Origin: Pseudomonadota bacterium
GTDB taxonomy: Bacteria > Campylobacterota > Campylobacteria > Campylobacterales > Sulfurimonadaceae
Length of the DNA stretch: 64,000 nt
Direction of reading: 5' to 3'
Assembly (NCBI GenBank): GCA_043797085.1
Contig: JAZDQA010000013.1
Coordinates: 32,001 to 96,000, forward strand
The stretch's first letter is position 1, and each line of letters begins with the position of its first letter. The position numbers were made by a program, and so were the translations under genes. Under the pieces are notes generated by a model. That model searched no databases and was not told the origin of the DNA. It worked only from the letters and a program-made list of their open reading frames with translations. Shown here in pieces: positions 2,872 through 32,462 of this stretch.

Positions 2872-2877
2872 TTAGAA

Positions 2878-3894: not shown

Positions 3895-3913
3895 GAGTGC
3901 CTCAATAAATTCT

Positions 3914-3982: not shown

Positions 3983-4006
3983 CTAATTATATTACAAGGT
4001 AAATTA

Positions 4007-5023: not shown

Positions 5024-5038
5024 CACTAATGTAACACT
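5021..5038 (+). promoter_or_regulatory. Putative OmpR-family response-regulator site (TAACACT direct repeat, 11-bp period)
   Basis: TAACACT-aatg-TAACACT just upstream of a TATGAT -10-like box and the TonB receptor gene. Confidence 0.45.
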
Positions 5039-5081
5039 TTTTTTCTATTATATGATGTCAAATAATCTTTAAGGAAAAAGA

Positions 5082-7112: not shown

Positions 7113-7192
7113 TCCCCCTGCCCTTCGGGGTATCCTAACGTTTCGTCAAAACTTCAGGATTCTCTCTTCCCACTTCATTGGGAGATTCTCTC

Positions 7193-8386: not shown

Positions 8387-8503
8387 CATCATCCTTAAAC
8401 GCTGTTTTTTTGCAAAAATAGTCTTAAATGATAGCAAAAAAACTGTTTACAAAGTCTCTATTGGCTATAATCTATCACATTTACCCTAACAAAGGTTACC
8501 CTA

Positions 8504-9298: not shown

Positions 9299-9300
9299 TT

Positions 9301-10686: not shown

Positions 10687-10688
10687 AA

Positions 10689-14167: not shown

Positions 14168-15225
14168 TCTTCCTGTGCTTCCATTTTTTCTACTTCTTCG
14201 ATAAACCTATCGACAAGCTTTTCTTCATCCAACCGTGCGACGACTTCACCCTTGACCATTACCAGCCCTGAGCCTTTACCATACGCGATTGCAACATCAG
14301 CATGCTTGGCTTCTCCGATAGCATTAACGACACACCCCATCACCGAAATATCCAACGGTTTTTTGATGTGTTTCGTCCGCTCTTCGATTACTGCAACTGC
14401 GCTGACCAAATCCGCTTCAATCCGTCCGCACGTAGGACATGAGATGATATTAACACCTTCACGTGCCACACCGCTGTCTTTTAAAATCGCACGTCCCACC
14501 TTGATCTCTTCTTCAAGCTCACCCGTAATCGAAACGCGCATCGTGTCACCGATACCATCGAGGAGTAATGCCCCAAGCCCGATAGCACTTTTAATCGTCG
14601 CATGAAAAATCGTTCCAGCCTCCGTCACACCCAAATGAAACGGATAGTTGTTTTTCGGACGTAACAACCGATACGCTTCTACGGTACGCTGAACATCACT
14701 CGCTTTGAGTGAAACTTTGATGTCGGTAAAGCCTAAATCTTCGAGAAATTTGATGTTATATTCCGCCGAGGCTACCATCCCCTCTGCCGTTTGACCATAA
14801 CGCTGCTCGAACTCTTTTTCCAAACTCCCCGCATTTACACCGATGCGTATAGGAATATGACGCTCTCCACACGCTTTGACAATCTCACGAATACGCGATT
14901 TTTCACCGATATTTCCAGGATTAAAGCGGATACAATCAACGACTTCAGCTGCGATAAGTGCTAGTTTATAATTAAAATGGATATCGGCTACGAGAGGGAG
15001 AGAAATTTGTTCTTTTATCGCTTTAAGAGCACGTGCATCCTCTTCATCAGGAACCGCCACACGAACGATGTCACATCCGGCAAAATGAAGGCGATTGATC
15101 TGCTCAACCGTGCTTGCCACATCCGACGTACGCGAATAGGTCATTGATTGTACTGAAATCGGAGCATCACCACCGATGGCAACATTTCCGACGTAAATTT
15201 TTTTGGTAGGGTATCGTGTAATCAT
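14164..15225 (-). CDS. ispG: HMBPP synthase IspG
   Basis: [35 protein letters not shown]. Confidence 0.98.
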
Positions 15226-15256
15226 GGTGAAGATTGTAGCTTGTTGGATGTTAATT

Positions 15257-17169: not shown

Positions 17170-17661
17170 TTAGTTAATCAATAATTTACATTGAGTCCCA
17201 TAAGTACCATCTGTAGTATCACATGTAAATCTACCAGTAGCAGGAGTATAGGTAAATGTAGTATTAACATTATTGATTTTATAGATATATGTCCAACCAG
17301 CTGTCGCACTACCCCCTACGGAGTTGTCCCATTTTCCATTTGTATCATCTTGGGTAGTAATACCATATTGTAACAACGTCCCATTCGTAGCATTAGTATC
17401 ATTATCATCAAATAGAACAGTGGTTGTACCACTAACATTTAATCGACTAATATAATTCGACTGACCTTGCATCAAACGCCCCTGACGCTCACTGATAATC
17501 GCTGCACGAATTGCTGAAATATCACTGCGGCCTTTGGCTATTTGCGCATCGTCACGAGTCGATGAAAGTTTTGGAATCGCTATTGCTGCTAGAATTCCTA
17601 ATACTACGATGACAAAGACAAGTTCGATCATTGTGAACGCTTTTCGTTTATAATACGACAT
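17170..17661 (-). CDS. Type IV pilin / pseudopilin-like protein (minor)
   Basis: Class III signal KRKA|FTMIELVFVIVVLGILAAIAIP; C-terminal Cys pair. Confidence 0.9.
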   Translation of the reverse strand: MSYYKRKAFTMIELVFVIVVLGILAAIAIPKLSSTRDDAQIAKGRSDISAIRAAIISERQGRLMQGQSNYISRLNVSGTTTVLFDDNDTNATNGTLLQYGITTQDDTNGKWDNSVGGSATAGWTYIYKINNVNTTFTYTPATGRFTCDTTDGTYGTQCKLLIN

Positions 17662-18106
17662 TTGTGCCTCTTAAAATCATAGGATAGATGGATGTATCAA
17701 TCAATTGCTGTAATTTTAAACACTCGCTATCACTACCAGCAGACCCTTGTGTAATAGTGAGGGTATCGGTACCGCCAACGGTCACTATTTGAATACTTAT
17801 ACAGCTCGAAATAGCCCCAAATGGAACGGTCACTTTATGCAAACTCGAATCATTGGTCGCACTTGCTGTCTCCACGAGTGCTTTCATACCATTCGACATT
17901 TGAGTCAAATCGCCGAGTACAGTTCCATTAGCCGTCGCATATGCCGCAATTTCACTCGCACCACTCGTAATATTTTGTGCTGTCCCACTAGCTACTGCAT
18001 CATCACGCGTTGCAGCCAATCTTGGTATTGCGACAGCAGCCAAAATACCTAAAATAACAATGACAAAAACCAACTCAATCATTGTAAAAGCAGTTCGTTT
18101 CATCAT
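17648..18106 (-). CDS. Type IV pilin / pseudopilin-like protein (minor)
   Basis: KRTA|FTMIELVFVIVILGILAAVAIP; Cys pair. Confidence 0.9.
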   Translation of the reverse strand: MMKRTAFTMIELVFVIVILGILAAVAIPRLAATRDDAVASGTAQNITSGASEIAAYATANGTVLGDLTQMSNGMKALVETASATNDSSLHKVTVPFGAISSCISIQIVTVGGTDTLTITQGSAGSDSECLKLQQLIDTSIYPMILRGTNVVL

Positions 18107-18176
18107 TTCATCCTATTGCGCTGAATTTTACGATTGAGCTACAATCACCAAAAATCAATTCAAGAGTTAACTATGC

Positions 18177-18196
18177 TCCCAAGCCAAAACTTGGGA
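18177..18196 (-). terminator. Hairpin downstream of the first pilin gene
   Basis: TCCCAAG-ccaaaa-CTTGGGA stem-loop about 20 bp after the pilin stop. Confidence 0.5.
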
Positions 18197-18216
18197 ACTC
18201 GTAAAATAACAATGAT

Positions 18217-18594
18217 TTAGTACGTTACGCCTGAGCCACCAAAGTTTTTATTTCCGATATTGCCAGCTTTAGACGCAATACTATGAGCTCCAGCACATGC
18301 AGGTACAGCTGTACTTGCAGTGGCAATAGTTACACCACTACCTGATGCTGTCATAGTGAAACAACCATCTGTAGCAAGAGTTACATTGGTTACAGATGCA
18401 GATGAATCAAGAATTCCTTTTGCTGTATAATAAGACCCTACATCACCAATAATTGTTGCCAAATCAGTCGCTGCTTTTGATGCTTTTGCATCATCACGCG
18501 TTGCTGCAAGTTTTGGAATAGCAACTGCCGCCAAAATACCTAGAATAACGATAACAAAGATCAATTCGATCATAGTAAAACCTGAACGTTTCAT
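18217..18594 (-). CDS. Type IV pilin (likely major pilin), Ser/Thr/Ala-rich
   Basis: MKRSG|FTMIELIFVIVILGILAAVAIP, strong AAGGAG SD, Cys pair, followed by a hairpin. Confidence 0.9.
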   Translation of the reverse strand: MKRSGFTMIELIFVIVILGILAAVAIPKLAATRDDAKASKAATDLATIIGDVGSYYTAKGILDSSASVTNVTLATDGCFTMTASGSGVTIATASTAVPACAGAHSIASKAGNIGNKNFGGSGVTY

Positions 18595-18676
18595 GGCTTA
18601 CTCCTTCATAGGTAGAAAAAAGTAGTTACACTCGTAACTCTAGTGATATTATTTATCATAATACATTAAGTATAGC

Positions 18677-20488
18677 TTAAGAATAAGTTTTATAAAGATA
18701 AATCGTCCAGTAACTCTCTTTTGATGTGAATATTTTAAGAAGGATCAAATGACTTTCTTTCTCATTCATAATTTTATATCCTGATAGTAAATATCTACCC
18801 CCCATCTGATAAAAAAGGGGCAAATCCATATAAAAATACTCTATCGCCTCATCTTGGTGGTATTCATCTGCATCGTAGTTTCCTCCTATGAGGTAACATT
18901 TACTTCCCCAATTTTGAATAAAGCGGCGACTATTAGGATTGTGGATAAAGTTTTCCCCTACCAACGCTTCAAACTGATGCTTATAGGAGAGTGGATAATT
19001 CGCGGCATATCCATCGAGGGTATACAATCCATTATACAGTGCCACGGCAGGGGGTATCCCGACACTGGCTACACGGTATGCCGTAGGATTCTCACCAATC
19101 ATCAGTTTAATCTCATCAAAAAGTTTTTCATCGTAAAAACTTTTGTAGGTCAGACCCTTGGGATTTTGAGTGAACTGTGCCGAATCAAAGGCAAAATTTA
19201 ATTGAGCGATGACAACAATGATGACAATCACGATTCCAAACCGTATTTTTTGGATAATAATAACCGATGAATAGGCTACTAAGGCATACCATACAGGGGT
19301 GAGCAACAATACAAATCGTGAAAAATCAAATGTTTGCAAGAGAGGAACATGTTGTGAAAAATTACACCACGGCTCATAATACCAAAAACCATACCATAAA
19401 GAGCTAATAAGTACAAATAGCCATACCCCATAAAGAATCCGATGCTCTTTGAATCGAAATAACAACCAAAGGATAATTCCAAAAGAGAAAGGAAAATAGT
19501 ATTTTGACATCAATACACTTTCCCATAGACCCGCAAAAAGTAATGCAGTATACAAAACGATACTAAAAACTGAAGCTTTCATTGCCAACCGTTGTCGCAG
19601 TAATGCTATGAAAAATCCCAAATGGATGATGGAGAGAAGATAAGGGAATTGAAGATTTAACGAATGAACTTGTCCGAATAAAAGAACATTATGGGCTCCG
19701 CGATATGCACCCCAAAAATCAACATATTGACGCTGAAACTCCGTTCGATGGGAAATAAAATCACTTCCAAAGAGCATTTCATTCACCAGTCGGTATTCAA
19801 TTCCTAAAAAAATGATCGTCATCAACCCCAGTGCCGTAAACAATCGATGATTAATCTTTTTTTGAAAAATCATCTCAGCTAAAAATAAAACCGTAACAGA
19901 GATGAGAAAGAAAAGATAGACCAATACAAAACTGCTAAAAAATGGTATCACGATCAGCATGAGCCAATCTCTCTTCGTGTCCGAATGCACTCGGATTTTC
20001 AACAGTACATAAAGAGATGACGGGAGTAATGCGACACCCAGTCCCGTAGCAGGAAAAAATGGGGTGAGGGCAAATAAAAGTGAGCTTAGATGGGTAATCA
20101 CCGGCTTAAAATCGACCTCTTTATCCCGCAAGAAGTATCGTAAAAAAAGCAGCATACTCACATAAGCAACACAATGGATCAATACTTCGTTCATGAGCAT
20201 GGCGGTAAAAGGTTTAAAAAAGACAAAAAGCCAAAGGAGATAATTGAACTCACTCCCATAAACCAATCGAGGTAAGCCCCCCATCATGTTGGGGATTATC
20301 TCCATCGAACCTGCGAAAATCATCCCACTGTGCGCTAAAATCTTCAAGGAGGGGACGGTAATATCCAGATTATCATGAATACGAATGTAAAGATTCTCGC
20401 CGTACAATAAAAGTGGCAAAAGATACAATACCAGTGTCGCAAAACTGATAAAAAACCAAAATCCGTTACGCTCTATAAGGGTTCTCAT
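18677..20488 (-). CDS. Polytopic membrane protein, DUF6044/YkoS-like putative GT-C glycosyltransferase (paralog 2)
   Basis: Many TM helices plus soluble C-terminal domain; HDNLD, PNMMGGLPRLVYGSEFN, YNGLYTLDGY...YPL.YK motifs shared with the neighbouring paralog. Family assigned from memory of motifs. Confidence 0.75.
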   Translation of the reverse strand: MRTLIERNGFWFFISFATLVLYLLPLLLYGENLYIRIHDNLDITVPSLKILAHSGMIFAGSMEIIPNMMGGLPRLVYGSEFNYLLWLFVFFKPFTAMLMNEVLIHCVAYVSMLLFLRYFLRDKEVDFKPVITHLSSLLFALTPFFPATGLGVALLPSSLYVLLKIRVHSDTKRDWLMLIVIPFFSSFVLVYLFFLISVTVLFLAEMIFQKKINHRLFTALGLMTIIFLGIEYRLVNEMLFGSDFISHRTEFQRQYVDFWGAYRGAHNVLLFGQVHSLNLQFPYLLSIIHLGFFIALLRQRLAMKASVFSIVLYTALLFAGLWESVLMSKYYFPFSFGIILWLLFRFKEHRILYGVWLFVLISSLWYGFWYYEPWCNFSQHVPLLQTFDFSRFVLLLTPVWYALVAYSSVIIIQKIRFGIVIVIIVVIAQLNFAFDSAQFTQNPKGLTYKSFYDEKLFDEIKLMIGENPTAYRVASVGIPPAVALYNGLYTLDGYAANYPLSYKHQFEALVGENFIHNPNSRRFIQNWGSKCYLIGGNYDADEYHQDEAIEYFYMDLPLFYQMGGRYLLSGYKIMNEKESHLILLKIFTSKESYWTIYLYKTYS

Positions 20489-22335
20489 TTTTTGGTAAGA
20501 TCAACCCGATACAAATACATCGTCCAAAAGGTATTCTTATCTCTAAACTCTTGTATAAAGACCAAATTCTTCAATTGAGACTCTTCAATCTTATGAGCTG
20601 AAATGAGATAACGTCCTCCCATTGCATAGTAGGCTTCCATGTTAAGGTTTAACTTTTTCACCTTCTCCTTGGAACGAAAATAAAGGCTGGATTCCCCTCC
20701 ATCAAAAAGATAACATTTACTTCCCCATCCTAAAAACAGGTCACGATTCCCTTTATCCGTAGCAAGCGTTTTTTCAATAATTTTGTAAAACTGATGCTTA
20801 TATTCGAGAGGATAACTCGTGATGTACCCGTCAATCGTATACAAACCGTTATAGACTGCAATGGATGGCTCAAACCCTATACATCCAACACGGTGGGAAG
20901 CATCAGAGGGGATCGTATGTTTGATCTTGGCAAAAAGATCTTCAGCAAAATAGGCTCTGTAAGTAAAGGGTGAATTGGGTGCTGAAAATTCCCTAGAATT
21001 CAAGCTCATATAAAGCTGTATTAGAATAACTCCCGCAAAAATCAATGGTGAAAATCGAATTTTTCGGGCAATAATCACCATCCCAAGAGCAGTAATAAGC
21101 ATCCAAATCACAGGCTGCAGTAAAGCAATGCGCGCGAAGTTAAATTCTCTTAAAATTGAAAAGGAGTGCGATAGCTCTCTTGTTCCTTCGTAAAACCACA
21201 ACGCATACCAATAAGCAAAAAATATTTGGAGTAAAATGGCTCCAAAAAAAAGCCTATACTGTTTTTTTAGTATCATTATTACAATCGTTATAATCGTTAG
21301 AAAAGGGATTGCATATTTGTTTCCAGTGATATATTGTACATAATCTGAAAAAGATACCCACACGAAAAATAGGCTAATAATAACTAAAGAGATAGACCAA
21401 GATAGACGTTTCTTTAAAAAAGTAGTACAGATAACTAAAAGCATAAAAGGAATAAGGATAACAGAAGCTCGCGTATCCATATCTATCGTCCCATTCAGAA
21501 AAACTTGATGTGCTGATCGGTACATTTCAAATAATGAACTATCCTGAAACATACTAAATTCTTTTCGATGGGAAACAAAGAGATGCTCAACAAAGGTATC
21601 ATAAAATAACCGATATTCGACAACGATAAATGCCAAAGACATAACGGTAAGAGATAATAAAAAATACCAATTAATTTGACGTTTTTTCAAAATATCCATA
21701 AGTAATAGAGCACTCATCACTAAAAGAAAAAAGAAATAAACGAGTATTAAACTGCTGTAAAATGGTATCAAAGCGATAATAAGCCAATCATACCATCTCC
21801 ATCCACCGCTGCGAATATTTAAAAAAGCGTACAGCGCCAAGGGAATAGAGGGGACACTCAACCCTGCCCCCGTATAAAATGGCAATAGGGCAAACATCAA
21901 AGAAGCACTGTGAATAATCAACAATCGGTATCGATGACGAGAAGGGACAAAATAACGACTTAGCAACACAAACATACTGAAAAAAGCCCCAAAGTGTATC
22001 AATGTTTCATTGATTGTAAAAGCGACGAAAGGGGTAAAGAAGTAAAATAACCAAACATATACATTGAATTCTGTTCCATAAACAAGTCTCGGCAGTCCCC
22101 CCATCATATTGGGAATAATCGTATCTGATGGTGCAAAGATGAATCCATTTGATGTCAATATTTTTAAACCAGGAAATACAATATCAAGATTGTCAAAAAT
22201 CTGAACCTGTGCCCCCTGTCCGTAAAAGTAGAGGGGAAAGAGATAAAGCTCAACCGCCAATATGGAAACTAAAAAAAGAAACCGTTGGTTGTTAAGTAAA
22301 TTTTTGTAGATATAGTCACTAACTCTCTTAATCAA
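20485..22335 (-). CDS. Polytopic membrane protein, DUF6044/YkoS-like putative GT-C glycosyltransferase (paralog 1)
   Basis: FDNLD, PNMMGGLPRLVYGTEFN, YNGLYTIDGY...YPLEYK, WGSKCY; probable TTG start at 22335 after a GAGG SD. Confidence 0.75.
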   Translation of the reverse strand: MIKRVSDYIYKNLLNNQRFLFLVSILAVELYLFPLYFYGQGAQVQIFDNLDIVFPGLKILTSNGFIFAPSDTIIPNMMGGLPRLVYGTEFNVYVWLFYFFTPFVAFTINETLIHFGAFFSMFVLLSRYFVPSRHRYRLLIIHSASLMFALLPFYTGAGLSVPSIPLALYAFLNIRSGGWRWYDWLIIALIPFYSSLILVYFFFLLVMSALLLMDILKKRQINWYFLLSLTVMSLAFIVVEYRLFYDTFVEHLFVSHRKEFSMFQDSSLFEMYRSAHQVFLNGTIDMDTRASVILIPFMLLVICTTFLKKRLSWSISLVIISLFFVWVSFSDYVQYITGNKYAIPFLTIITIVIMILKKQYRLFFGAILLQIFFAYWYALWFYEGTRELSHSFSILREFNFARIALLQPVIWMLITALGMVIIARKIRFSPLIFAGVILIQLYMSLNSREFSAPNSPFTYRAYFAEDLFAKIKHTIPSDASHRVGCIGFEPSIAVYNGLYTIDGYITSYPLEYKHQFYKIIEKTLATDKGNRDLFLGWGSKCYLFDGGESSLYFRSKEKVKKLNLNMEAYYAMGGRYLISAHKIEESQLKNLVFIQEFRDKNTFWTMYLYRVDLTKK

Positions 22336-23263
22336 AATTGATCCTCTCTTTTTCAAAAACTAATGGTCGGTTGAGCACCTGCGTATAAATCATCCCGATG
22401 TATTCCCCCAATATTCCGATAAAAAATAAGAGAACAGAAAACGCGAAAGTTGCCCCAATCAACAACGGAGCCACTCCCAATGACATTGAATCCCAATAGA
22501 TAAGCTTCATTATCAAATATCCACATCCTGTTATAATACTCAACACGGCAATAATTGCGCCCAAAAAAATGGCTAAACGAAGAGGAATCTTAGAATAATT
22601 CAAAATACCTAATACGCCAACATCGTACAGGGTATAAAAGTTGTTTTTTGTCACTCCCCTCAATCGTATCAGCTGATCGTACTGAATCGTATCAACCGAG
22701 TACCCCACTTCACTGATCATCCCTCGCAAAAAAGGGTAGGGATCATCAATCGATTTGAGTGCATTAACCACTTTGCGATCATATAACCCAAATCCAGTAA
22801 AGTTTTTATAGATTTTTACTTCGGATAGTTTTTGTAAAAGTGCATAGTACAACTCACGAATTTTATACATCACCTTGTGTTCTTGAGAACTTTTACGTAT
22901 TGCTAAAACCATGTCCGCCCCCGCTTCCCATTTATGAATAAGCTCAGAGATGAGTTCCGGCGGATCTTGCAAATCTGAAACCATAGAGATAACGGCATCA
23001 CCTGTGGCTTGAAAAAGTCCATAAGCAGGGGATTTTATATGACCGAAATTTCTGGAGTTCACAATGATTTTTATCCGCTTATCTTCTAGAGCAAGCTCTT
23101 TTAAAATAGCTACTGTATTGTCTGTCGAGGCATTGTCTATCAATAAATGCTCATATTCATAATGTGAAAACTGCCCATCCATCACTGCACGAATCCGTTC
23201 AATCAACTCGCGTACATTCCCTTCTTCGTTAAAGCACGGCGTCATAATGCTAATTTTTTTCAT
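22328..23263 (-). CDS. GT2 polyprenyl-phosphate glycosyltransferase (GtrB/ArnC-like)
   Basis: PCFNEE, DNASTD, SRNFGH, DLQDPP, two C-terminal TM helices, GILGEYIG..Y.QV..RP. Confidence 0.93.
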   Translation of the reverse strand: MKKISIMTPCFNEEGNVRELIERIRAVMDGQFSHYEYEHLLIDNASTDNTVAILKELALEDKRIKIIVNSRNFGHIKSPAYGLFQATGDAVISMVSDLQDPPELISELIHKWEAGADMVLAIRKSSQEHKVMYKIRELYYALLQKLSEVKIYKNFTGFGLYDRKVVNALKSIDDPYPFLRGMISEVGYSVDTIQYDQLIRLRGVTKNNFYTLYDVGVLGILNYSKIPLRLAIFLGAIIAVLSIITGCGYLIMKLIYWDSMSLGVAPLLIGATFAFSVLLFFIGILGEYIGMIYTQVLNRPLVFEKERINFD

Positions 23264-23265
23264 CT

Positions 23266-23646
23266 TTACCCTTTAAATACAAATCGTTTATTGAGTACAA
23301 AGGACACCAATGCCATTGGGATAATCAAGAGTGCCCCTGCAACATAAATATCGATTGAGATTTTTTCCAAAAGATACAATCCAATAATATTCAGCAGATA
23401 GATAATTCCATACACACCAAAAAATTTCCAAATCAAAGTGTTGTCATATGACCTAAAAACCAGCTTACCTGTCGTTTTGAAATTAAATAATACACCGATT
23501 ATTGTTCCAATAAAAACTGCCACGGTATAGTGTAGCCCTGTATAAATCAACACTGCAAACAGTGAATACCCAAAAAGTGTATTCAGTCCACCTACCAGTA
23601 AAAATTTAAAAATCTGTTTTTGCCACAATTTTTTTATTGTTTCCAT
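23266..23646 (-). CDS. GtrA family lipid-linked sugar flippase
   Basis: 126 aa, four TM helices, KFLLVGGLNT...FVLNKRFVF. Confidence 0.92.
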   Translation of the reverse strand: METIKKLWQKQIFKFLLVGGLNTLFGYSLFAVLIYTGLHYTVAVFIGTIIGVLFNFKTTGKLVFRSYDNTLIWKFFGVYGIIYLLNIIGLYLLEKISIDIYVAGALLIIPMALVSFVLNKRFVFKG

Positions 23647-24554
23647 ATTGTATCAATTGCGTGCAAATAAGGGTCGTTTTTAATCATTTCAACATCCAAA
23701 ATAGATAACTGTGATTGAAAATAGTGCCTCATTTTCCGTATTGCCTCAGCATGAGAGGTAAACTCAAAAGCTCCCATTTCGTTTACAATTTTTTGATTAT
23801 TAGCAGTATATTCATTATTCAATCCATCGTTAATGACTATAATCTCAGATTGGTAATCGCTGATACTATTGATATGGTGTGCCAACGTTATCAAATCTAT
23901 TTTTGTACCTTTTGATGTATTATAAATTTTTTCTTTCATCTCGTGATGTATGACATAGTTAATCATGTGCAACAAATCATTGATATAAATATAATCAAAA
24001 TAGACATTTTTATTAATCGTGATGGGTAAATGCAAGAGATTCTTCACAATGGCATTGGAAATAAATTTAAATCGATAATTCTCATACTTACCGTACGCTC
24101 CAAAAATCCTTAGCTGTACCATACGGTCTGATTTTTCTATAATATGAGACGTAATCGATTTGTAAAAACCATATTCATCTAATGGAAAAGAATTGAGATA
24201 GTCTTCTTCTCTAGCATCAACAATCGGCTTATGTTTTCCGTATTCTGCCCCGCTTCCAAAACTAATAATTTTTTGAACGTTTTTTTCGTACTTGGTAATA
24301 TTAAAAAAAACTCGTAAATTATATTCAGTACTATTTTTCATATCCATCGTATCGCGACCACCACCACGGTTGGCTGTATGGATAATAATATCAACCGTAT
24401 GATGCAACATATACTCATCCACAGCGCATTCATCAACCAAATCAAGCTCATTGTGTGAAGGAGTAAGCAAGATATACTGCGGGTATTCTTTTTGCAAATA
24501 TTCTTTTAAATGGGAGCCAATAAAACCATTAGCACCGGTAATAAAAATAGTCAT
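23634..24554 (-). CDS. NAD-dependent epimerase/reductase (extended SDR)
   Basis: TGANGFIG, GSGAEYG, YGFYK (YxxxK). Confidence 0.9.
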   Translation of the reverse strand: MTIFITGANGFIGSHLKEYLQKEYPQYILLTPSHNELDLVDECAVDEYMLHHTVDIIIHTANRGGGRDTMDMKNSTEYNLRVFFNITKYEKNVQKIISFGSGAEYGKHKPIVDAREEDYLNSFPLDEYGFYKSITSHIIEKSDRMVQLRIFGAYGKYENYRFKFISNAIVKNLLHLPITINKNVYFDYIYINDLLHMINYVIHHEMKEKIYNTSKGTKIDLITLAHHINSISDYQSEIIVINDGLNNEYTANNQKIVNEMGAFEFTSHAEAIRKMRHYFQSQLSILDVEMIKNDPYLHAIDTIWKQ

Positions 24555-25405
24555 TATTTTTTACGACACACAATTGCTTGTATCTGTTTCCCATTTCCAA
24601 CTTCTGTTTGAAATTTATCCACAATTACCAAATCATGTATGACTGCTAGACGTTCAAGAGCCATCGGTGAAAAAAAGTTGATATGTTCGTGCCACAGTCT
24701 CTTTTTAGTATAGAACTTCTCCATAGGATTAACCATCAATGTTTCTAACGGTATTTCTAGGTATATGAGAGTTCGCTTACCACTAAGGTCAACGAGCTGT
24801 TGTATAATCTGATGAGGGTCGCTCACATGTTCTAGTACTTGCATGCACGTCACCAAAGAGTATTCACATTGGTATTTTTTTATTTCATCAATAGTTACTG
24901 CAACAGCATTATGCAACGTTGTTTTACCTGAAATGTCAAAAATATGTACTGTATCTGCAGTATCAATAAAAGGGGTATTTGCCCCATCATCTCCCCCGAA
25001 ATCAAGAATACGCATGTCGCCCGACAGATGTGGTTGTAAAAACAGCTCTACTTGTCGCACATAATCCCAACGTTTTCCCTCGAGCACTTGATTGACTATC
25101 TCATAGCCACTTTCATACGACGATCGTAATTCGGTATAGTTCTCATCTCGATATCCACTATAAAGACGTCCCATCTCATCATCATCAAAGCGCATGTCCA
25201 AAAAAAGCATTTGACACTCACTGCAACAAAGCGTATTACACAATGCATAAGCATGACCAATTGGTATATCCCGAAAACCAAATGATTCATCAATATCCAT
25301 AGGCTTCCAGTCAAAGATACGATCTGCCAAAAAAGGGGCTAAAACAGCTGAAACTTTTACTAGGTTATGTGAGCCACATACAACACATTGACGAGCAACA
25401 GTCAT
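24554..25405 (-). CDS. Class I SAM-dependent methyltransferase with N-terminal Cys motifs
   Basis: CVVCG, CSEC, ILDFGGDDG, QVLEHVSDP, HEHINFF. Confidence 0.85.
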   Translation of the reverse strand: MTVARQCVVCGSHNLVKVSAVLAPFLADRIFDWKPMDIDESFGFRDIPIGHAYALCNTLCCSECQMLFLDMRFDDDEMGRLYSGYRDENYTELRSSYESGYEIVNQVLEGKRWDYVRQVELFLQPHLSGDMRILDFGGDDGANTPFIDTADTVHIFDISGKTTLHNAVAVTIDEIKKYQCEYSLVTCMQVLEHVSDPHQIIQQLVDLSGKRTLIYLEIPLETLMVNPMEKFYTKKRLWHEHINFFSPMALERLAVIHDLVIVDKFQTEVGNGKQIQAIVCRKK

Positions 25406-25408
25406 AAA

Positions 25409-26239
25409 TTAGTCTTCCAATACGGCAGTAGTAAACTCGTTGTATTTAATCAACTGCTGCACCAACGCTGTTTTAAGTTGAGTTAGCTCATACCCACCAT
25501 TAATACCAAACTTTTTAAGTACGTATTCCAGTGGAATATTACCGTCGTGCCATTTTCCCCCTAGTCCCAATAACGTTGCGTCAGTATACCGACACCCTTT
25601 AGCAAGTGCTACATCCAGTAGCATCTCACCTGTCCCATTTTTATCATGCAAGTGCATCCCAGCTTCAATTCCCTCAGCTCGAACGGCATCCATCGTGTTA
25701 CTGACATACTCTGGGGTGAACACACTCTCTGTATCCGCAAAATAAATTACATCAACGCCATGCGCCTTACTAAAACGGGCAAATTCGATATTTTTCTCAA
25801 TTGAATTGTATCCTGCACTGGTAAAATTAATAAACAGCTCATATCCTAGCTTTTGAACCTCTTCCACATGCCGTGCGAGTACATCTAAATCAGTTTCATG
25901 GGAACGGGTAATAAAACGGACCGCATCAATCACACTGTCACTTCGAGGTAATAAGGTTGATAGCGGTCGCTGTAAATCTTGCATTGCTGAGAGCTTTGTC
26001 CAGTTTTTAATCGGTGCAAACATTTTAATCAAATCATCATTTTGCTCACTACAATACCGAAATATTCCACGTTCAGGATCGGCTAACTGTGAGTGAAAAA
26101 AACCAAGCTCTAAATAATCAATACCTTTTCCATGAGCAAATTTATACATATCAACTGCAAATTTTTTATCAAAATGCCATCCTGTTTGATAACCTGCTTC
26201 TCGTAACGTGCAGTCAAAAAGTGTTACTTTATTTTGCAT
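25409..26239 (-). CDS. HMGL-like (DRE-TIM) aldolase, 4-hydroxy-2-oxovalerate aldolase-like
   Basis: DCTLREAGY, YLELGF, YFADT, GMHLHD, DATLLGLG. Confidence 0.8.
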   Translation of the reverse strand: MQNKVTLFDCTLREAGYQTGWHFDKKFAVDMYKFAHGKGIDYLELGFFHSQLADPERGIFRYCSEQNDDLIKMFAPIKNWTKLSAMQDLQRPLSTLLPRSDSVIDAVRFITRSHETDLDVLARHVEEVQKLGYELFINFTSAGYNSIEKNIEFARFSKAHGVDVIYFADTESVFTPEYVSNTMDAVRAEGIEAGMHLHDKNGTGEMLLDVALAKGCRYTDATLLGLGGKWHDGNIPLEYVLKKFGINGGYELTQLKTALVQQLIKYNEFTTAVLED

Positions 26240-26257
26240 AATATTCTCCTTTCATCT

Positions 26258-27289
26258 TTAGTTAAAACAATATAAAACCAAGTCAAAACCATAACGTCCA
26301 TGTTGACGTATGTATAATTTTGAATAGTATTGGGACAAATAAAGTGGTAATGTTATTATATCATCCGGCTTATGATAGAGTGAAATAGCAAGTGCGGGTT
26401 TATGTGTTTCAATGAGTCGTGTAGCACCTAAAAGGGCTTCTTGTTCAAACCCTTCTATATCCATTTTAATCCAATCTACCTCACCTACTATTACACTGTC
26501 CAAAGAGACTATTTTGATAAGCTCAGTTCCATTATCATCAAAATGGCTCGCCATCCCCTCACCCGAAGCAAATCTCAAATTCAGTTCCCGATCACCTACG
26601 CCTAATGGCATAATAATTGAGTTGATTTTTCTTTGACGAAGAGTATTGCTCAATATTTCTCTGTTACTAACATCTGGTTCAAATGCTATGTACTCACCAA
26701 GATCAATCGATTTATCTAACGCACTGTTAAGTAAATCTCCAAAACAAGCACCGCAATCAACAACTCGTAAAGATTTTTCAAGCGAATGAAGATGTTGGAC
26801 AAAAAAATCGGGAACATATTGGTCTTCTTGGCTCAAACAGCGATGCAAAAGAGTAATATCACCATCCGTTCTAAAGTCAATATGTGCTTGAAAAATATTT
26901 GTTGACAAATCATCAAACAATAGATTTGAAACCTGCACTATCTCTTCGCGTTTCTTATCAAAATTTCCAATATAAAAATAGTCAAACTCCAAATTAAATT
27001 GGTTAATTACTTGTTGAATATTAACTACTTCTTTGAACCCTAATGAAAGAATAAGCTTTGTTAGTTCATTCAATTCATTCTCTCTTAATTCTTGTTTAAA
27101 AGTACTTACAATAACAGTAGTTTCACTTCTAAAAGAATCTTCGATTTGTAAAGGAGTAATTATTTCTATCTCATCAAAAATTGTACCGTTTTTATGATTA
27201 TCCAGCAAAAAATCAACTTTAATGTTTTGTTTTTTGAGTTGAAAATAGAGTTTTTGTCCTAGTGCGCCTATCCCTAATAGTGCTACCAC
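26258..27289 (-). CDS. FkbM family methyltransferase
   Basis: VDCGACFGD, AFEPD, IKMDIEGFE, P.LAISLYH. Confidence 0.9.
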   Translation of the reverse strand: MVALLGIGALGQKLYFQLKKQNIKVDFLLDNHKNGTIFDEIEIITPLQIEDSFRSETTVIVSTFKQELRENELNELTKLILSLGFKEVVNIQQVINQFNLEFDYFYIGNFDKKREEIVQVSNLLFDDLSTNIFQAHIDFRTDGDITLLHRCLSQEDQYVPDFFVQHLHSLEKSLRVVDCGACFGDLLNSALDKSIDLGEYIAFEPDVSNREILSNTLRQRKINSIIMPLGVGDRELNLRFASGEGMASHFDDNGTELIKIVSLDSVIVGEVDWIKMDIEGFEQEALLGATRLIETHKPALAISLYHKPDDIITLPLYLSQYYSKLYIRQHGRYGFDLVLYCFN

Positions 27290-29089
27290 TTATTCCCCCA
27301 TCGGCTTAATAATCATATTACGCTTAAATACATCCCGCTCTAAAAAAGGATACATATCTTCCAGTGGTGCAGACATCATCGTTCCATCAGCTTTGATTTT
27401 AGAGGAGAGTTTTGGTTCCATTTTCTCTGTCGAATCAATCATAACCTCACAGATAAACTGCTCATTTTCATTATAGATTTTACTTATTGTATCCAATAAG
27501 TTATCTTGGTTTTCAATTTTGAACGTTTTAAATCCATACGCCATAGAGATTTTTCCAATATCAGGAAAGCTTACCCCGCTACCTATATCTGAACCCACTC
27601 TAAATCCATTAAAAAAATTATTTTGAGTATTACGTATTGACGAATAGCCATTATTATTCAGAACAAATAACTTGATTGGAAGATTATAATGGATGATTGT
27701 CTGAAGCTCTTGAAGATTCATCTGTAAACTTCCTTCCCCCGTTACACACACAATACTTTGACGATTATTTGCCAAACACGCACCAATAGCAGCGGGTAAA
27801 TCATACCCCATGGCTGCACATCCAGAATTTTCTATAATGCGCTGATTACCTTTGGTTACCAAGCTTTGATAAGATGATACACTAGCAGTAGCATTGGCAA
27901 AAACAAAAACCTCATTATTTTTAACAATATCTGAAAGAGTATGAAAGAAAAAATACGAATCCACAAAATCTTTTACATCTCGTCGCTCTGGTATAATCGT
28001 TGGAAAATCCTCTCGATATACTCGACATCGCTGCACCCAAGGCTCATACGATGGTAATGGATTTTGCTCAGTTGCTTTTTTCAAATCACTAATAAATATT
28101 TTAGCATCTGCATTGATTTTTACATCAATGGATAATGTATGTTTCTCAAGTTCAGCGGGGTCAATATCAACAACAATTTTTTGTGCTTCACGCCCAAAAT
28201 ATTCCCAATTGTAACTGATAGCGCGAATATTTAACCGTGCTCCGATAGCAATAATTAAATCACTGTTTTGGACAATAAAATTGGTTGAACGATGTCCTAT
28301 CGTACCAAATCGTCCAAAGCCAAAAGGATGATCGTCATTAACCATGTCATAACGTGCGAACGAAGATACGACAGGAATTTGTAATTTTTCTATCAGTTCC
28401 AAAAACTGCTCTCTCGCATTGGCCAATACAATCCCGTTTCCAGCAATGATAACAGGACGCTTAGCCGTATGCAACATAGCTACTACATCAGTAATTTTAG
28501 TATCATACACAGATTTTGGTGGAGAAATAAAACCAACCAAATCAGATTCCTCGATCATAGCGCTTTGAATATCGAGCGGAATATCGAGCCAAACAGGTCC
28601 TGGACGACCATGCTTTGCTTCATAAAGCGCTTTTTCCAGATGGAATCGAACGCTATTTTTATCCGTAATCATTACAGCGTACTTAGTAATAGGCTTTACC
28701 ATAGCAATAATATTACCCTCTTGATCACCCAGCTGTCGTAAATTTAACTCTAGTTGGGATGCTATGGTGGTTTGAAACTTCACTTGCCCCGAAATGGTAA
28801 GCGTTGGTATCGAATCAACCCATGCACTGTACACTCCGGTGATTGCATTCGTCCCTCCTGGGCCTGTTGTCACGTACGCAATACCAATCTTATTGGAAAG
28901 CCTTGCATATCCTTCAGTAGCGAAAGTACAGGCCTGCTCATGGTGATTACACACATACTCTAAACCATCGTGTTTTCCTAAAGCATCAATGAGATGCATA
29001 TTACCGCCACCTGAAACCATAAATACCGTTTTAGCCGTATCATTGTGTTGCGCCAAAGTATTGGCAATATAGTCTGCTACTCGAATCAT
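27290..29089 (-). CDS. ThDP-dependent enzyme of the acetolactate synthase-like family (YerE-like sugar-branching enzyme by context)
   Basis: HHEQA, TTGPGGTN, RPGPVWLDIPLD, GEGSLQMN...LNNNGY ThDP motif; directly follows rfbH. Confidence 0.85.
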   Translation of the reverse strand: MIRVADYIANTLAQHNDTAKTVFMVSGGGNMHLIDALGKHDGLEYVCNHHEQACTFATEGYARLSNKIGIAYVTTGPGGTNAITGVYSAWVDSIPTLTISGQVKFQTTIASQLELNLRQLGDQEGNIIAMVKPITKYAVMITDKNSVRFHLEKALYEAKHGRPGPVWLDIPLDIQSAMIEESDLVGFISPPKSVYDTKITDVVAMLHTAKRPVIIAGNGIVLANAREQFLELIEKLQIPVVSSFARYDMVNDDHPFGFGRFGTIGHRSTNFIVQNSDLIIAIGARLNIRAISYNWEYFGREAQKIVVDIDPAELEKHTLSIDVKINADAKIFISDLKKATEQNPLPSYEPWVQRCRVYREDFPTIIPERRDVKDFVDSYFFFHTLSDIVKNNEVFVFANATASVSSYQSLVTKGNQRIIENSGCAAMGYDLPAAIGACLANNRQSIVCVTGEGSLQMNLQELQTIIHYNLPIKLFVLNNNGYSSIRNTQNNFFNGFRVGSDIGSGVSFPDIGKISMAYGFKTFKIENQDNLLDTISKIYNENEQFICEVMIDSTEKMEPKLSSKIKADGTMMSAPLEDMYPFLERDVFKRNMIIKPMGE

Positions 29090-30414
29090 TTTTGAATAAA
29101 CCCTCTAATTTTTTCTATCATATACGCTATTGCATCATCGCCCATTCCCGGATAAAGTCCAATCCAAAAACTGTCATTCATAATCTTATCCGTATTTGCC
29201 AGTTCCCCGATAACACGGTAATCAGACTCACTCACCATACTGTCAAACATTGGATGGCGGAGCATATTTCCTGCGAACAGATTACGTGTTTGGATATTGG
29301 CATTTTCGAGATGTTCTACGAGTTCATTACGGGTGAATCTTACAGTATCTTTCAATGTAATCATAAACCCAAACCAGCTTGGATCACTGTTGGGTGTTGC
29401 AGTATTTAGAATCAGCTCATCCATCCCACTTAACCCATCGTAAAGTTTAGTAAAATTTTCTTTACGCTTTTCAACAAAAGTCGGAAATTTTTCAAGTTGT
29501 GCTACACCGATTGCCGCTTGCATATCGGAGACTTTGAGATTGAATCCGAAGTGACTGTAGACGTACTTGTGATCATACCCCTTTGGCAAAGTTCCAAAAC
29601 TTTGAGAGAATCGGCATCCGCAAGTGTTATCAATACCGCTTTCACACCAGCAGTCGCGTCCCCAGTCACGCATAGAGAGCATAATCTTTTTTAGGAGAGG
29701 ATTGTCCGTATAGGTCGCTCCCCCTTCTCCCATGGTCATATGGTGAGGAGGGTAAAAACTAGATGTTCCGATATCTCCCCATGTCCCTGTCGGTTTCCCC
29801 TCGTAGGTAGATCCTAACGCATCGCAGTTGTCCTCGATAAGCCAGAGGTTATGTTTGTCGCAAAACTCTTTGACCGCACGGAGGTTAAAAGGGTTACCCA
29901 GCGTATGGGCGATCATGACCACCTTGGTTTTTGGGCTAAGGGCCTTTTCGAGTTGTGTTACATCGATGTTAAAATGGGTCAGTTCCATATCAACAAAAAC
30001 CGGAACGGCGCCGTATTGCACGATCGGGGCAACTGTGGTCGGGAAACCTGCCGCAACGGTGATTACTTCATCTCCACGCTTGACTTGACGATCACCGTGC
30101 AATGGGGACGTAAGGGTATAAAATGCAAGGAGATTTGCAGAACTGCCACTATTAACGAGAAATGTCCATCGTACTCCAAGATAGTCGGCGAGTTTCTTTT
30201 CAAATGTTTTAGAATAGCTTCCGTAGGTGAGCCAAAAATCCAGAGAGCTGTCGACGAGGTTAATCATCTCTTTTTCATCAAATACGCGTCCTGCATAGTT
30301 GACACGGCTTTTACCCGCTACAAATACTGCTTCTTGCATCGGTTTATGTACGAGTTCATAATACTCTTTGGTCTTTTGCAGAATCTCATTTTTTAGTTGC
30401 TGGGCTGGTGTCAT
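29086..30414 (-). CDS. rfbH: CDP-4-keto-6-deoxy-D-glucose 3-dehydratase (RfbH/DdhC)
   Basis: NSGSSANL, EDNCDALG, SFYPPHHMTMGEGG (His in place of the PLP Lys), GRDCWC..G.DNTC Fe-S motif. Confidence 0.95.
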   Translation of the reverse strand: MTPAQQLKNEILQKTKEYYELVHKPMQEAVFVAGKSRVNYAGRVFDEKEMINLVDSSLDFWLTYGSYSKTFEKKLADYLGVRWTFLVNSGSSANLLAFYTLTSPLHGDRQVKRGDEVITVAAGFPTTVAPIVQYGAVPVFVDMELTHFNIDVTQLEKALSPKTKVVMIAHTLGNPFNLRAVKEFCDKHNLWLIEDNCDALGSTYEGKPTGTWGDIGTSSFYPPHHMTMGEGGATYTDNPLLKKIMLSMRDWGRDCWCESGIDNTCGCRFSQSFGTLPKGYDHKYVYSHFGFNLKVSDMQAAIGVAQLEKFPTFVEKRKENFTKLYDGLSGMDELILNTATPNSDPSWFGFMITLKDTVRFTRNELVEHLENANIQTRNLFAGNMLRHPMFDSMVSESDYRVIGELANTDKIMNDSFWIGLYPGMGDDAIAYMIEKIRGFIQK

Positions 30415-30416
30415 CT

Positions 30417-31517
30417 CTACCACTCTCTTGTCCATGATAGTTTTTTTTGTCGTGCATTTTGAACATAATCATCTAAATTTTGTACTGTTGTAGCAACATT
30501 ATTCTCATAAAAATATTTGTACCATAATAGCGTTTTTTCAAAAGCAGTTTCGCTATCCCAAACATCTTTCCATTTTAAACGAATATGGGCTTTTGAACAA
30601 TCGAGTTTTAATAAATTCGCTTCATGAAATTGATGAAGATCTCGATTGATCTCATAATCGATTTTATCCCAGTGTTTTTTTACATGATGTACGACCTCTT
30701 CAACAGTAATACTCCCCTCATCACTGGGACCAAAGTTCCATGCTTCTCCAAATTCAACTTTTTCTTCCAAAAGTTTTTGTCCGATAGCAAGATATCCACT
30801 GAGCGGTTCAAGAACATGCTGCCATGGACGAGTAGCATTGGGATTTCGGATACTGACTTTTTTTCCTTTTGAAACGGATAACATAATATCAGTCATCAGG
30901 CGCTCTTTTGCCCAGTCTCCACCACCGATCACGTTACCTGCGCGACACGATGCTAAAAGAGTATTATGCGATTTTTTGTAATCGACAGGATTGAAATATG
31001 AGTTTCGATAAGAATTAGCGAGTAAATCGGCACACCCTTTAGACGAGCTGTAAGGGTCATATCCTCCCATAGGATCGTTTTCACGATATCCCCATACCCA
31101 TTCGCGGTTTTCATAGGCTTTATCGCTTGTGATGTTAACGATGGCTTTGACATTGTGTGTACGGCACGCTTCAAAAACCTTCAGTGTCCCCATGACATTG
31201 GTTTCATAGGTTTCGATAGGGGCTTCATAGGAGAAGCGCACAAGCGATTGAGCGGCAAGATGAAATACTATGTCGGGCTTGTAGGTTGCAAAAGTAGTAT
31301 TTAATGCGTCCAAATCTCGAATATCTCCGATGATAGAGATAATATCAAGATCTAGAAGCAAAATATGGTTAGGCTCAGTGGGGGCAGGAAGTGAATATCC
31401 GATTACTTTGGCTCCCATTTGATGTAACCATAATGCAAGCCATGATCCTTTGAATCCTGTATGCCCCGTTAGTAAAACCGTTTTATCTTTGTAAACGCCA
31501 CCAAAAAGATTATCCAT
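30417..31517 (-). CDS. rfbG: CDP-glucose 4,6-dehydratase
   Basis: TGHTGFKGSWL, HLAAQSLV, YSSSKG, RAGNVIGGGDW, RPWQHVLEPL. Confidence 0.96.
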   Translation of the reverse strand: MDNLFGGVYKDKTVLLTGHTGFKGSWLALWLHQMGAKVIGYSLPAPTEPNHILLLDLDIISIIGDIRDLDALNTTFATYKPDIVFHLAAQSLVRFSYEAPIETYETNVMGTLKVFEACRTHNVKAIVNITSDKAYENREWVWGYRENDPMGGYDPYSSSKGCADLLANSYRNSYFNPVDYKKSHNTLLASCRAGNVIGGGDWAKERLMTDIMLSVSKGKKVSIRNPNATRPWQHVLEPLSGYLAIGQKLLEEKVEFGEAWNFGPSDEGSITVEEVVHHVKKHWDKIDYEINRDLHQFHEANLLKLDCSKAHIRLKWKDVWDSETAFEKTLLWYKYFYENNVATTVQNLDDYVQNARQKKLSWTREW

Positions 31518-32290
31518 TACCAGTTTTTCCATTTGGCTTTATTATCATGCCACAGTTGGTTCAGTTTTTGGTTATCTCGAAGCGTATCCATACACTGCCA
31601 AAAACCATGATGTTTATAAGCAAAAAGCTCACCCTCTTTTGCAATCGCTTGCAAGGCAGTTTGCTCAAAAACACATGCTTCATTTTCAGTTAAATACTTA
31701 AATATTGTTGATTCGCATACAAAAAATCCGCCATTAATCCAGCCACCCTCATCAAGCGGCTTTTCAACAAAACTTTTAATATTCATATCTTCAGAAATTT
31801 CCAAATTTCCAAATCGTGCTTCGGGTTGGACAGCGGTCATCGTTAATGTCTTGCCATTCTTTTTGTGAAAGGCTACCGTATCTGTAATATTAACATCACA
31901 AACTCCATCACCATAGGTAAGTAAAAAAGGCTCATTTCCAATATATTTTTCAGCTCTTTTGATCCGTCCACCTGTCATTGTATCACGTCCCGTATCGACT
32001 AAAGTAACCTTCCATGGCTCACTGGTATTATTATGAACTTCCATTTGACCCGTCTGAATATCAAAAGTAATATCACTTTGATGCAAAAAATAATTAGCAA
32101 AATATTCTTTGATGTAATAGCTTTTATATCCCAGCAAAATAACAAAATCATTAAAACCGTGTGCAGAATACATTTTCATAATATGCCAAAGAATCGGTTT
32201 TCCTCCAATTTCTACCATCGGCTTTGGTTTTAACTCTGTCTCTTCAGATATACGGGTTCCATATCCACCTGCTAAAATCACTACTTTCAT
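31517..32290 (-). CDS. rfbF: Glucose-1-phosphate cytidylyltransferase
   Basis: LAGGYGTRISEET..KPKPMVEIG, TMTGGRIK, GFWQCMDTLRD. Confidence 0.96.
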   Translation of the reverse strand: MKVVILAGGYGTRISEETELKPKPMVEIGGKPILWHIMKMYSAHGFNDFVILLGYKSYYIKEYFANYFLHQSDITFDIQTGQMEVHNNTSEPWKVTLVDTGRDTMTGGRIKRAEKYIGNEPFLLTYGDGVCDVNITDTVAFHKKNGKTLTMTAVQPEARFGNLEISEDMNIKSFVEKPLDEGGWINGGFFVCESTIFKYLTENEACVFEQTALQAIAKEGELFAYKHHGFWQCMDTLRDNQKLNQLWHDNKAKWKNW

Positions 32291-32462
32291 TCTGTCCATT
32301 CTTACATTATTTATAATAACTCAACACTTTTCTGGTTTTTATTATATCAATATTTTGTGTTAATCATCATACTTTCTCTCTTTAATTACGATTAAACATT
32401 GTAGGCGTATAATTCGCTTCATAATGTTGCTCGTTATTCGAGCTTAAAAGGCGAAATAGATC

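Follow-up and report, generated by a model that had tools for sequence, protein, structure and literature searches.

Why does a run of sugar genes end directly in front of a group of type IV pilin genes? The question is raised by a stretch of 64,000 nucleotides (the window, G000:C13:32001-96000, where G000 is the genome under study). Its host genus would be Sulfuricurvum, the name carried by homologues at 60-63% identity. Between pckA and priA, twelve genes, here called the cassette, and three prepilin genes (PF07963; pil1, pil2 and pil3) all lie on the minus strand. In order, the cassette encodes RfbF, RfbG, RfbH, a thiamine diphosphate (ThDP) enzyme, an FkbM protein, an aldolase, a Methyltransf_23 protein, a short-chain dehydrogenase/reductase (SDR), GtrA, a GtrB-like protein and two DUF6044 proteins (DUF6044a and DUF6044b). 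Seven of the eleven junctions overlap, the other four are spaced 0-18 bp, and pil1 follows the last gene after 82 bp.

The answer proposed here, which the sequence comparisons make quite probable, is that the cassette carries out a TfpW-like O-glycosylation of pil1 with an acyl-branched dideoxysugar derived from cytidine diphosphate (CDP), as an allelic alternative to likely N-glycosylation by PglB. What is new concerns the major pilin beside the transferase: it is a short protein without the PglB sequon, in most cases with a Ser/Thr motif at its end, although pglB is kept.

An earlier sequence-only reading of the window had described a co-oriented, largely overlapping run ending 82 bp from the pilins. 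All genes and junctions were checked and agree with it. Its coordinates need small corrections: rfbF starts at 32299, and the longer DUF6044 open reading frame (ORF) can start at 22356.

Transferases beside the pilin genes

Both DUF6044 proteins belong to PF19510, and they are 37% identical to each other. A glycosyltransferase C (GT-C) fold, which the sequence-only reading had proposed to look for, is predicted for one of the two, DUF6044b, from a structural model with a predicted local distance difference test score (pLDDT) of 94.6. In a wide structure search with this model, ranks 1-11 are GT-C enzymes (Pmt, STT3, PglB, AftD, AftA, ALG12 and ArnT), with Z of 9.0-13.9, root-mean-square deviations of 4.5-6.2 and 346-463 positions aligned; the Z values are middling for a helical protein, and the matches cover most of the chain. 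Foldseek gave eight matches at E<=0.001, all of them STT3/AglB, with STT3 at E 3e-5. Neither DUF6044 protein matches Wzy_C (PF04932) at E<=0.01. An ESM Atlas search ranked DUF6044 clusters first, with no named function among its results.

The acidic motif of the first external loop contains D39 and D42 of DUF6044b, which are invariant in 104 of 104 homologous sequences, and DxxD is retained in both paralogues. A Listeria monocytogenes DUF6044 protein is 31% identical to DUF6044b over its full length (E 2e-82), and its D35-N-L-D38 aligns with D39-N-L-D42. This record would be GtlB (Lmo0626), since D35, D38 and S39 match the numbering of PMC5836110. According to that paper, GtlB requires both D35 and D38 to galactosylate lipoteichoic acid, GtlB is somewhat similar to TfpW, and the target of its relative YkoS (Bacillus subtilis) is not known (PMC5836110). 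Like GtlB and YkoS, the cassette proteins have a GtrB-like GT2 partner; unlike GtlB, which acts in a monoderm (PMC5836110), they belong to a clade that has an insertion and adjoins pilins.

Members of this pilin-linked clade are about 55 residues longer than the others (median 621 vs 564 aa), with an insertion of about 45 residues. A lipoteichoic acid substrate is unlikely in this diderm lineage. If the proposal is true, the DUF6044/GtlB family has a protein acceptor, and a switch from polymer to protein has occurred within one GT-C family. A literature search on DUF6044 found nothing, and one combining GtlB, pilin and GT-C found only PMC5836110.

TfpW, from Pseudomonas aeruginosa group IV, is encoded by a GT-C gene beside the major pilin gene and is tied to one pilin allele (bioRxiv 10.1101/2020.04.19.049825). 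Further likenesses are a lipid-monophosphate sugar donor, supplied by genes clustered apart that include a GtrA-like flippase, and a Ser/Thr O-linkage, the last of which would also hold for the cassette. There are also differences. The cassette has DUF6044 proteins with DxxD, whereas TfpW has DDX and a tetratricopeptide repeat (TPR) region, a distinction drawn by family and not by direct alignment. A GtrB-loaded, CDP-derived branched deoxysugar is predicted for the cassette, whereas TfpW uses D-arabinofuranose made on lipid. Finally, the cassette has one to five paralogues, and its alternative pilin allele carries a PglB sequon. A family profile search of the block matched neither the TPR nor the DprE family (the DprE1/DprE2 arabinofuranose genes). 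The cassette transferases are GtlB-family members in what would be a new role, TfpW-like in working but not members of TfpW.

Three overlapping sets of genomes were searched for DUF6044, with 353 from the family, 401 from the phylum and 250 from a second family, f6. With weak matches below the cut-off excluded (G778, G843, G580), it is found in 23 Campylobacterota genomes, 18 of which have a pilin gene within 2.2 kb. Two of the remaining five stop at contig edges (G023, G831), and three are without a nearby pilin (G061, G353, G157). Metagenome loci have a pilin within 2.2 kb in 24 of 75 cases. Among the matches listed there are 79 loci from named genomes; a pilin neighbours only two of these, both from Sulfuricurvum, and none of the other 77, which are mostly from Bacillota, while a GtrB-like neighbour is present at 67 of the 79.

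A FastTree tree was built from 120 DUF6044 proteins, those shorter than 400 aa being omitted and the fragmentary G157 protein left unplaced. One side, with 63 rows and a Shimodaira-Hasegawa-like (SH-like) support of 96, contains every pilin-adjacent protein together with the contig-edge cases. The other side, with 57 rows, has no pilin-adjacent protein and includes G061 and G353. DUF6044a and DUF6044b are sister groups within the pilin-linked clade, and they occur in eight and six, respectively, of the eight pilin-slot genomes of the genus.

The genes around the transferase vary. CDP/ThDP sugar genes stand beside it in G000, G029, G434 and G700, the last of which belongs to f6 and has the same gene set beside its pilins. 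Eight genomes have an aminotransferase and an EamA-type flippase instead (G090, G375, G638, G583, G771, G878, G879, G738), and in four the transferase pair is alone in the pilin slot (G002, G012, G033, G023). Adjacency to the pilin is kept across the two families despite altered orientation, gene order and sugar genes, which is the favourable outcome of a check that the sequence-only reading had proposed.

This adjacency bears on an alternative explanation, that the GT-C pair decorates lipopolysaccharide (LPS; core, lipid A or O-antigen), the pilin locus being a mere insertion hotspot and the pilin allele a hitch-hiker. The DUF6044 genes of G061 and G353 are located in polysaccharide clusters, as this explanation would have it, but both fall in the other DUF6044 clade. 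Adjacency outlasts the changes just described, and the transferases remain at the pilin while donor genes relocate. The LPS explanation is thus considered unlikely.

The pilin allele that accompanies the cassette

From its conserved leader and upstream signals, pil1 is likely the major pilin. It has the prepilin motif, long N-terminal helix and disulfide head of a type IVa pilin, and assembly and retraction ATPases are present in the genome. A fold search with a model of pil1 was weak (top match gonococcal pilin, at E 0.11; none at E<=0.001). A predicted complex of DUF6044b and pil1 scored 0.00, which is not evidence either way.

The extended sequon of PglB in Campylobacterota is D/E-X-N-X-S/T (PMC6025236). 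Of 93 cassette-less genomes, 77 have it in their major pilin; of 16 carriers, none does. By set, the counts for cassette-less and carrier genomes are 32/36 vs 0/7 in the genus and 21/26 vs 0/6 in f6, the f6 and g45 comparison sets being the 30 loci most like a short pilin and not random ones. Carrier metagenome contigs have none either (0/18). Among cassette-less pilins the sequon is found far above chance (79/96 vs 12.3 expected), and half of these pilins place it at the same turn, DGN[LVI]T. The longer, sequon-bearing allele is likely N-glycosylated by PglB. This pattern predicts PglB N-glycosylation of a bacterial major pilin, of which a literature search found no report; a search on pilin glycosylation in Campylobacterota or Sulfuricurvum found nothing relevant.

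Loss of pglB was considered as a reason for the loss of the sequon and was rejected, because all 14 carriers tested retain pglB. G000 has the Pgl N-glycosylation system of Campylobacterota, whose sequon is found in most cassette-less major pilins (PMC6025236); in contrast, pil1 has no sequon, and the cassette and the pgl locus have no gene in common. The sequons of pil3 are kept in seven of seven cases. The sequence-only reading had taken all three adjacent pilins as acceptors; because pil3 keeps PglB sequons, pil1 rather than all three is the likely target. A one-to-one pairing of paralogues with pilins was rejected as well, since three pilins are accompanied by one transferase in G035 and G029 and by two in G000 and G005.

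Candidate O-glycosylation sites of pil1 are Ser116 (18234-18232), Thr119 (18225-18223) and the Ser-rich turn 79-82, which reads Ser-Gly-Ser-Gly where relatives show DGN[LVI]T. A C-terminal motif, G-[ST]-x-[VI]-[ST]-[YFILW], defined post hoc from the same data, is present in 33 of 37 carrier pilins and 20 of 96 others. Ser or Thr stands at mature position 119 in 95% of carrier pilins and 32% of cassette-less ones. Compared with other pilins, those adjacent to the transferase are richer in Ser (13.1% vs 7.9%) and poorer in Asn (4.4% vs 6.3%). Hitch-hiking of the allele, as the LPS explanation supposes, would leave unexplained why divergent pilins of several genera have lost the sequon and gained a C-terminal Ser/Thr.

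The same composition bears on the idea that Ser/Thr of pil1 is not what the transferase modifies, its target being a non-hydroxyl site (an Asn that is not in a PglB sequon) or a minor pilin. The closest solved folds do include the N-transferases STT3, PglB and AglB, and pil1 contains one N-x-T. However, several other adjacent major pilins have no N-x-S/T at all, adjacent pilins are Asn-poorer and Ser-richer, and O-transferases (Pmt) score as high as STT3. This idea is very improbable.

A pilin sequence matched to its O-glycosylation is also seen with TfpO/PglL and class II pilins. TfpO uses the C-terminal Ser of the pilin (bioRxiv 10.1101/2020.04.19.049825), which can be compared with the penultimate Ser/Thr here, and in Neisseria, glycans at several sites mask class II pilins (PMC4569582). 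TfpO and PglL are Wzy_C-family enzymes that move oligosaccharides from undecaprenyl diphosphate (Und-PP) with no GtrB step, whereas the cassette has DUF6044 proteins.

The eight carrier genomes of the genus are not a clade on pckA (five changes; approximately unbiased (AU) test p 1e-65), with the caveat that pckA adjoins the slot and may itself recombine. Their ten pil1 copies form one clade (support 98; 119-123 aa vs 108-169 aa). The transferase and the short, sequon-less allele would move jointly between lineages, replacing the longer PglB-type allele, and the likely benefit would be a pilus masked from phages. Pilin glycosylation can mask the pilus in this way. If true, an allelic switch from N- to O-glycosylation would account for the varied pilins of abundant groundwater and vent bacteria as a way of evading phages. 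The compact Ser/Thr tag, together with a transferase of a single sugar from undecaprenyl phosphate (Und-P), may also be of use in glycoengineering.

The sugar donor and its other use

The ThDP enzyme falls below every acetohydroxyacid synthase (AHAS) cut-off shown, and its best match is PDB 8rph (E 4e-136, vs 3e-72 for AHAS). This structure is presumably the YerE-like JanthE. The enzyme is likened to YerE/ErwE through this match and the gene set, not by direct sequence comparison. In RfbH, the spacing C-X57-C-X1-C-X7-C is taken to be the E1 cysteine motif. For the aldolase, the nearest NCBIfam model is 4-hydroxy-2-oxovalerate aldolase, far below its cut-off.

Genes ddhA, ddhB and ddhC are clustered here with a ThDP enzyme and a reductase, as expected of an acyl-branched pathway. 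From this gene content, the sugar is predicted to be a CDP-derived, acyl-branched and methylated 3,6-dideoxysugar. In described systems, long acyl-branched sugars, for instance erwiniose and caryophyllose, are made by ddh genes together with genes for a ThDP enzyme, an aldolase, a reductase and a methyltransferase (PMC9306805). Similar clusters, with an NAD(P)H reductase, contain YerE/YerF (yersiniose), ErwE/ErwI (erwiniose) and MMAR_2332 (caryophyllose) (PMC9306805, PMC12247030). The cassette differs in having two methyltransferases and neither E3 nor an acetaldehyde dehydrogenase. It would differ too in the fate of the product: the cases described by PMC9306805 end in LPS or lipooligosaccharide (LOS), whereas the cassette sugar would pass via Und-P to protein. 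If true, an acyl-branched, methylated dideoxysugar of LPS type, so far described from LPS/LOS, is placed on protein, in the pilus (PMC9306805).

The proposed pathway can be followed step by step. RfbF, RfbG and RfbH, whose families are recognised, would make CDP-4-keto-3,6-dideoxyglucose; in place of the E3 reductase, which the search did not find, another electron donor is assumed. If the pathway resembles those of erwiniose and caryophyllose, a 2-oxo acid would come from the aldolase and be added at C-4 by the ThDP enzyme, the SDR would reduce the branched sugar and the two methyltransferases would O-methylate it. GtrB would then load one sugar on Und-P, and GtrA would flip the sugar-lipid. 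Loading by GtrB, flipping by GtrA and periplasmic transfer are established for those families, and the genes for the GtrB-like GT2 protein, the GtrA flippase and the GT-C proteins are adjacent (18677-23646), as in three-component Gtr-type systems. On the periplasmic side, DUF6044a would pass the sugar to Ser/Thr of pil1 anchored in the membrane, at a site probably close to the C-terminus or at the Ser-rich turn. DUF6044b may add a second site or a second sugar.

In G000, rfbF, rfbG and rfbH form a single set, and gtrA and gtrB are single. The block has no O-antigen or capsule assembly genes, as had been noted from the sequence; a family profile search of it gave no match to Wzx/Wzy, to an ABC exporter, to an initiating transferase or to any further family of glycosyltransferases. 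A Wzx/Wzy O-antigen-type locus is present elsewhere (G000:C5, about 111-137 kb), and the genome also carries separate Maf-type flagellin and pgl loci.

Across 66 genomes of the genus, rfbH is found in 7 of 8 carriers and 15 of 58 non-carriers, and gtrB in 7 of 8 and 7 of 58, even when unlinked; the exception among carriers is G012, which is 81% complete. Since both genes accompany the transferase whether or not they are linked to it, the transferase would depend on this donor. The sequence-only reading had called the cassette a self-contained module. This holds in G000, apart from E3, but five relatives have the sugar genes in an LPS-core locus, three of them with gtrA/gtrB.

Several observations weigh against pil1 as the acceptor, or against the pathway as drawn, and some of them favour LPS. 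The sole characterised member of the family, GtlB, acts on a polymer, lipoteichoic acid (PMC5836110), and acyl-branched sugars are known from LPS and LOS (PMC9306805). G002, G033, G023, G005 and G035 have their CDP-sugar genes in the LPS-core locus; the loci of the first three also hold gtrA/gtrB and an unrelated protein of 771-831 aa with 13 transmembrane (TM) segments. The region fetched from G023 contains gtrA/gtrB and an SDR gene, with rfbH on another contig. Seven genomes have gtrB without DUF6044, and G061, G353 and G157 have DUF6044 away from pilins. The E3 reductase (ddhD/rfbI) was not found by motif in the block or in the genome, whose assembly is 96% complete, and PF00970 was found in none of five genomes. 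As for the pilins, supported independent contrasts number only three on the host tree or four on the pilin tree; none is opposed, and the result is not significant. The absence of the sequon from carriers (0/37) is not below chance taken alone, 2.6 being expected. Short cassette-less pilins (<=126 aa) lack the sequon too in 12 of 21 cases, and 16 of the 93 cassette-less genomes are sequon-less; of seven such regions inspected more widely, five have no adjacent transferase.

Because donor genes lie in LPS-core loci and gtrB occurs without DUF6044, the donor has a non-pilin use, which is probably LPS. In a second alternative, the donor is shared and the cassette acts on pilin as well as on some other acceptor of the envelope (LPS core, or else the N-glycan of pil3 or other PglB substrates), for instance with one paralogue for each. 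The low identity of the paralogues and the five copies in G375 fit such sharing, as do the sequons kept by pil3. The G029 cassette contains an unrelated 791-aa, 13-TM protein whose homologues sit in LPS-core loci; G000 has no homologue in its genome, and a paralogue could substitute for it. On the other hand, the two paralogues group as sisters within the pilin-linked clade, and many loci have a single copy beside the pilin. Sharing of this kind is quite unlikely, and glycosylation of pil1 remains the preferred explanation.

The 771-831 aa family, with 11-13 TM segments (L180:15672-17987, L183:4221-6716, L187:16761-19079 and L035:4643-7018), lies beside gtrA/gtrB, within LPS-core loci and, in one case, within a pilin cassette. 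It has no Pfam match, and its Atlas lead is PMT_2-like.

The pilin slot and its neighbours

The features of the locus are collected in Table 1.

Table 1. Features of the cassette and pilin cluster, with positions in the window
Feature	Position	Strand	Evidence or remark
rfbF/ddhA, glucose-1-phosphate cytidylyltransferase	31517..32299	-	TIGR02623 401 bits, cut-off 300; sole close copy in genome
rfbG/ddhB, CDP-glucose 4,6-dehydratase	30417..31532	-	TIGR02622 476 bits, cut-off 278
rfbH/ddhC, E1 C-3 dehydrase	29086..30435	-	NF011936 720 bits, cut-off 423; C-X57-C-X1-C-X7-C spacing
ThDP-dependent enzyme, predicted YerE/ErwE-like carboligase (C-4 acyl branch)	27290..29089	-	three thiamine pyrophosphate (TPP) domains; PDB 8rph
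FkbM-family methyltransferase, predicted sugar O-methylation	26258..27289	-	PF05050; TIGR01444 above cut-off
HMGL-like aldolase, predicted source of longer 2-oxo-acid donor	25409..26239	-	PF00682
S-adenosylmethionine (SAM)-dependent methyltransferase (Methyltransf_23)	24554..25405	-	PF13489
Extended SDR, predicted YerF-like reductase	23634..24554	-	PF01370; role suggested by PMC9306805
GtrA-family flippase	23266..23646	-	PF04138 62.5 bits; sole copy found in genome
GtrB-like polyprenyl-phosphate glycosyltransferase (GT2)	22328..23263	-	PF00535; PgfS, ArnC nearest NCBIfam, below cut-off; sole close copy
DUF6044a, GtlB/YkoS-family GT-C, D55-N-L-D58	20485..22356	-	PF19510 487 bits
DUF6044b, GtlB/YkoS-family GT-C, D39-N-L-D42 at 20374-20363	18677..20488	-	PF19510 494 bits; model
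Short inverted repeat directly upstream of pil1 ribosome-binding site	18622..18640	-	conserved among relatives
pil1, likely major type IV pilin, 120 aa mature	18217..18594	-	no D/E-x-N-x-S/T sequon
pil2, second prepilin, only in some relatives	17648..18106	-	prepilin family match; no extended sequon here
pil3, priA-adjacent prepilin	17170..17661	-	two PglB sequons retained: DDNDT, DTNAT

The slot without a cassette was surveyed in 40 upstream regions from cassette-less genomes of the genus, chosen as those with the most sequence out of about 53 with priA. In 32 of the 40, pckA, sometimes with one small gene, stands directly before the pilins; four regions end early, and four hold other genes. 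Two f6 genomes have other transferases in the pilin cluster: a Wzy_C protein with galactofuranose genes in G916, and an STT3-type protein with a Wzy_C protein in G829.

A wider picture can be drawn tentatively, at somewhat less than an even chance. Most Sulfurimonadaceae and Sulfurovaceae may N-glycosylate their major pilin through PglB at a selected D-G-N-x-T turn. A mobile GtlB-clade cassette, travelling with a short allele, may switch the pilin to O-glycosylation with interchangeable single sugars. The pilin locus would then be a serotype-like slot with at least four modes (PglB, DUF6044, Wzy_C-type and dedicated STT3-type).

In G916 (L364, G916:C1:494000-513000), positions 3484-15779 hold an initiating transferase, a UDP-galactopyranose mutase, galactofuranosyltransferase-like glycosyltransferases, an ABC exporter and the Wzy_C protein between pilins. 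The pilin beside them has 117 aa and no sequon, making it a candidate for O-glycosylation with galactan. In G829 (L365, G829:C22), two proteins are encoded between pilins at 2869-7308, one of Wzy_C type and one STT3/PglB-like, the latter divergent and 719 aa long; the adjacent major pilin has no extended sequon. In G434 (L168:12711-15917), DUF6044 is fused behind a GT87-like membrane protein in a chain of 1068 aa; a pilin lies about 1.9 kb away, with an insertion sequence (IS) transposase between. In G375 (L159-L160, G375:C1:575000-593000), the five DUF6044 copies, a sulfotransferase and a sialate-esterase-like gene precede four pilins.

Short, sequon-less major pilins without a transferase beside them are found at L149/L150 (G082, G064), L366, L368, L369, L370, L371 and L372; G843, from this group, has no pglB match either. 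They may depend on an unlinked O-transferase or be unglycosylated. In several genomes of the genus, two extra prepilin genes of FTLVEL type, most with extended sequons, lie beyond pckA/glnA at L126, L130, L141, L144, L145, L151 and L152.

The inverted repeat upstream of pil1 (GTTAC-N4-GTAAC type) is present, with variants, in all 12 upstream regions printed, and its arms covary in one. The region folds no better than shuffled sequences (z -0.32). The repeat is a candidate hairpin of the 5' untranslated region (UTR) or a candidate regulator site. A promoter and terminator scan was uninformative, with 57 and 8 sites vs 56.0 and 10.3 in shuffles.

In searches of phages and plasmids no match reached 60% identity, and the organism tallies show none from Campylobacterota. 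One RNA run, X1 (one study), has contigs that match the window exactly across the three pilins and parts of the cassette; such contigs neither rank genes nor prove transcription and are not used as support. A second run, X2, gave unrelated short pieces only.

As pilus machinery, G000 has secretin, PilB-like ATPase and PilC-like genes at two loci, besides a gspG-linked locus and two PilT-like ATPases of shorter length. Many genomes of the genus have a 130-aa ORF without a Pfam match between pckA and the pilin slot (L024:12769-13164 and equivalents), which is absent from the window. In other genera, the pilin cluster repeatedly has as its neighbour a GGDEF protein predicted to have two TM segments (L158:358-1347, L161:18142-19110 and L364:16399-17382).

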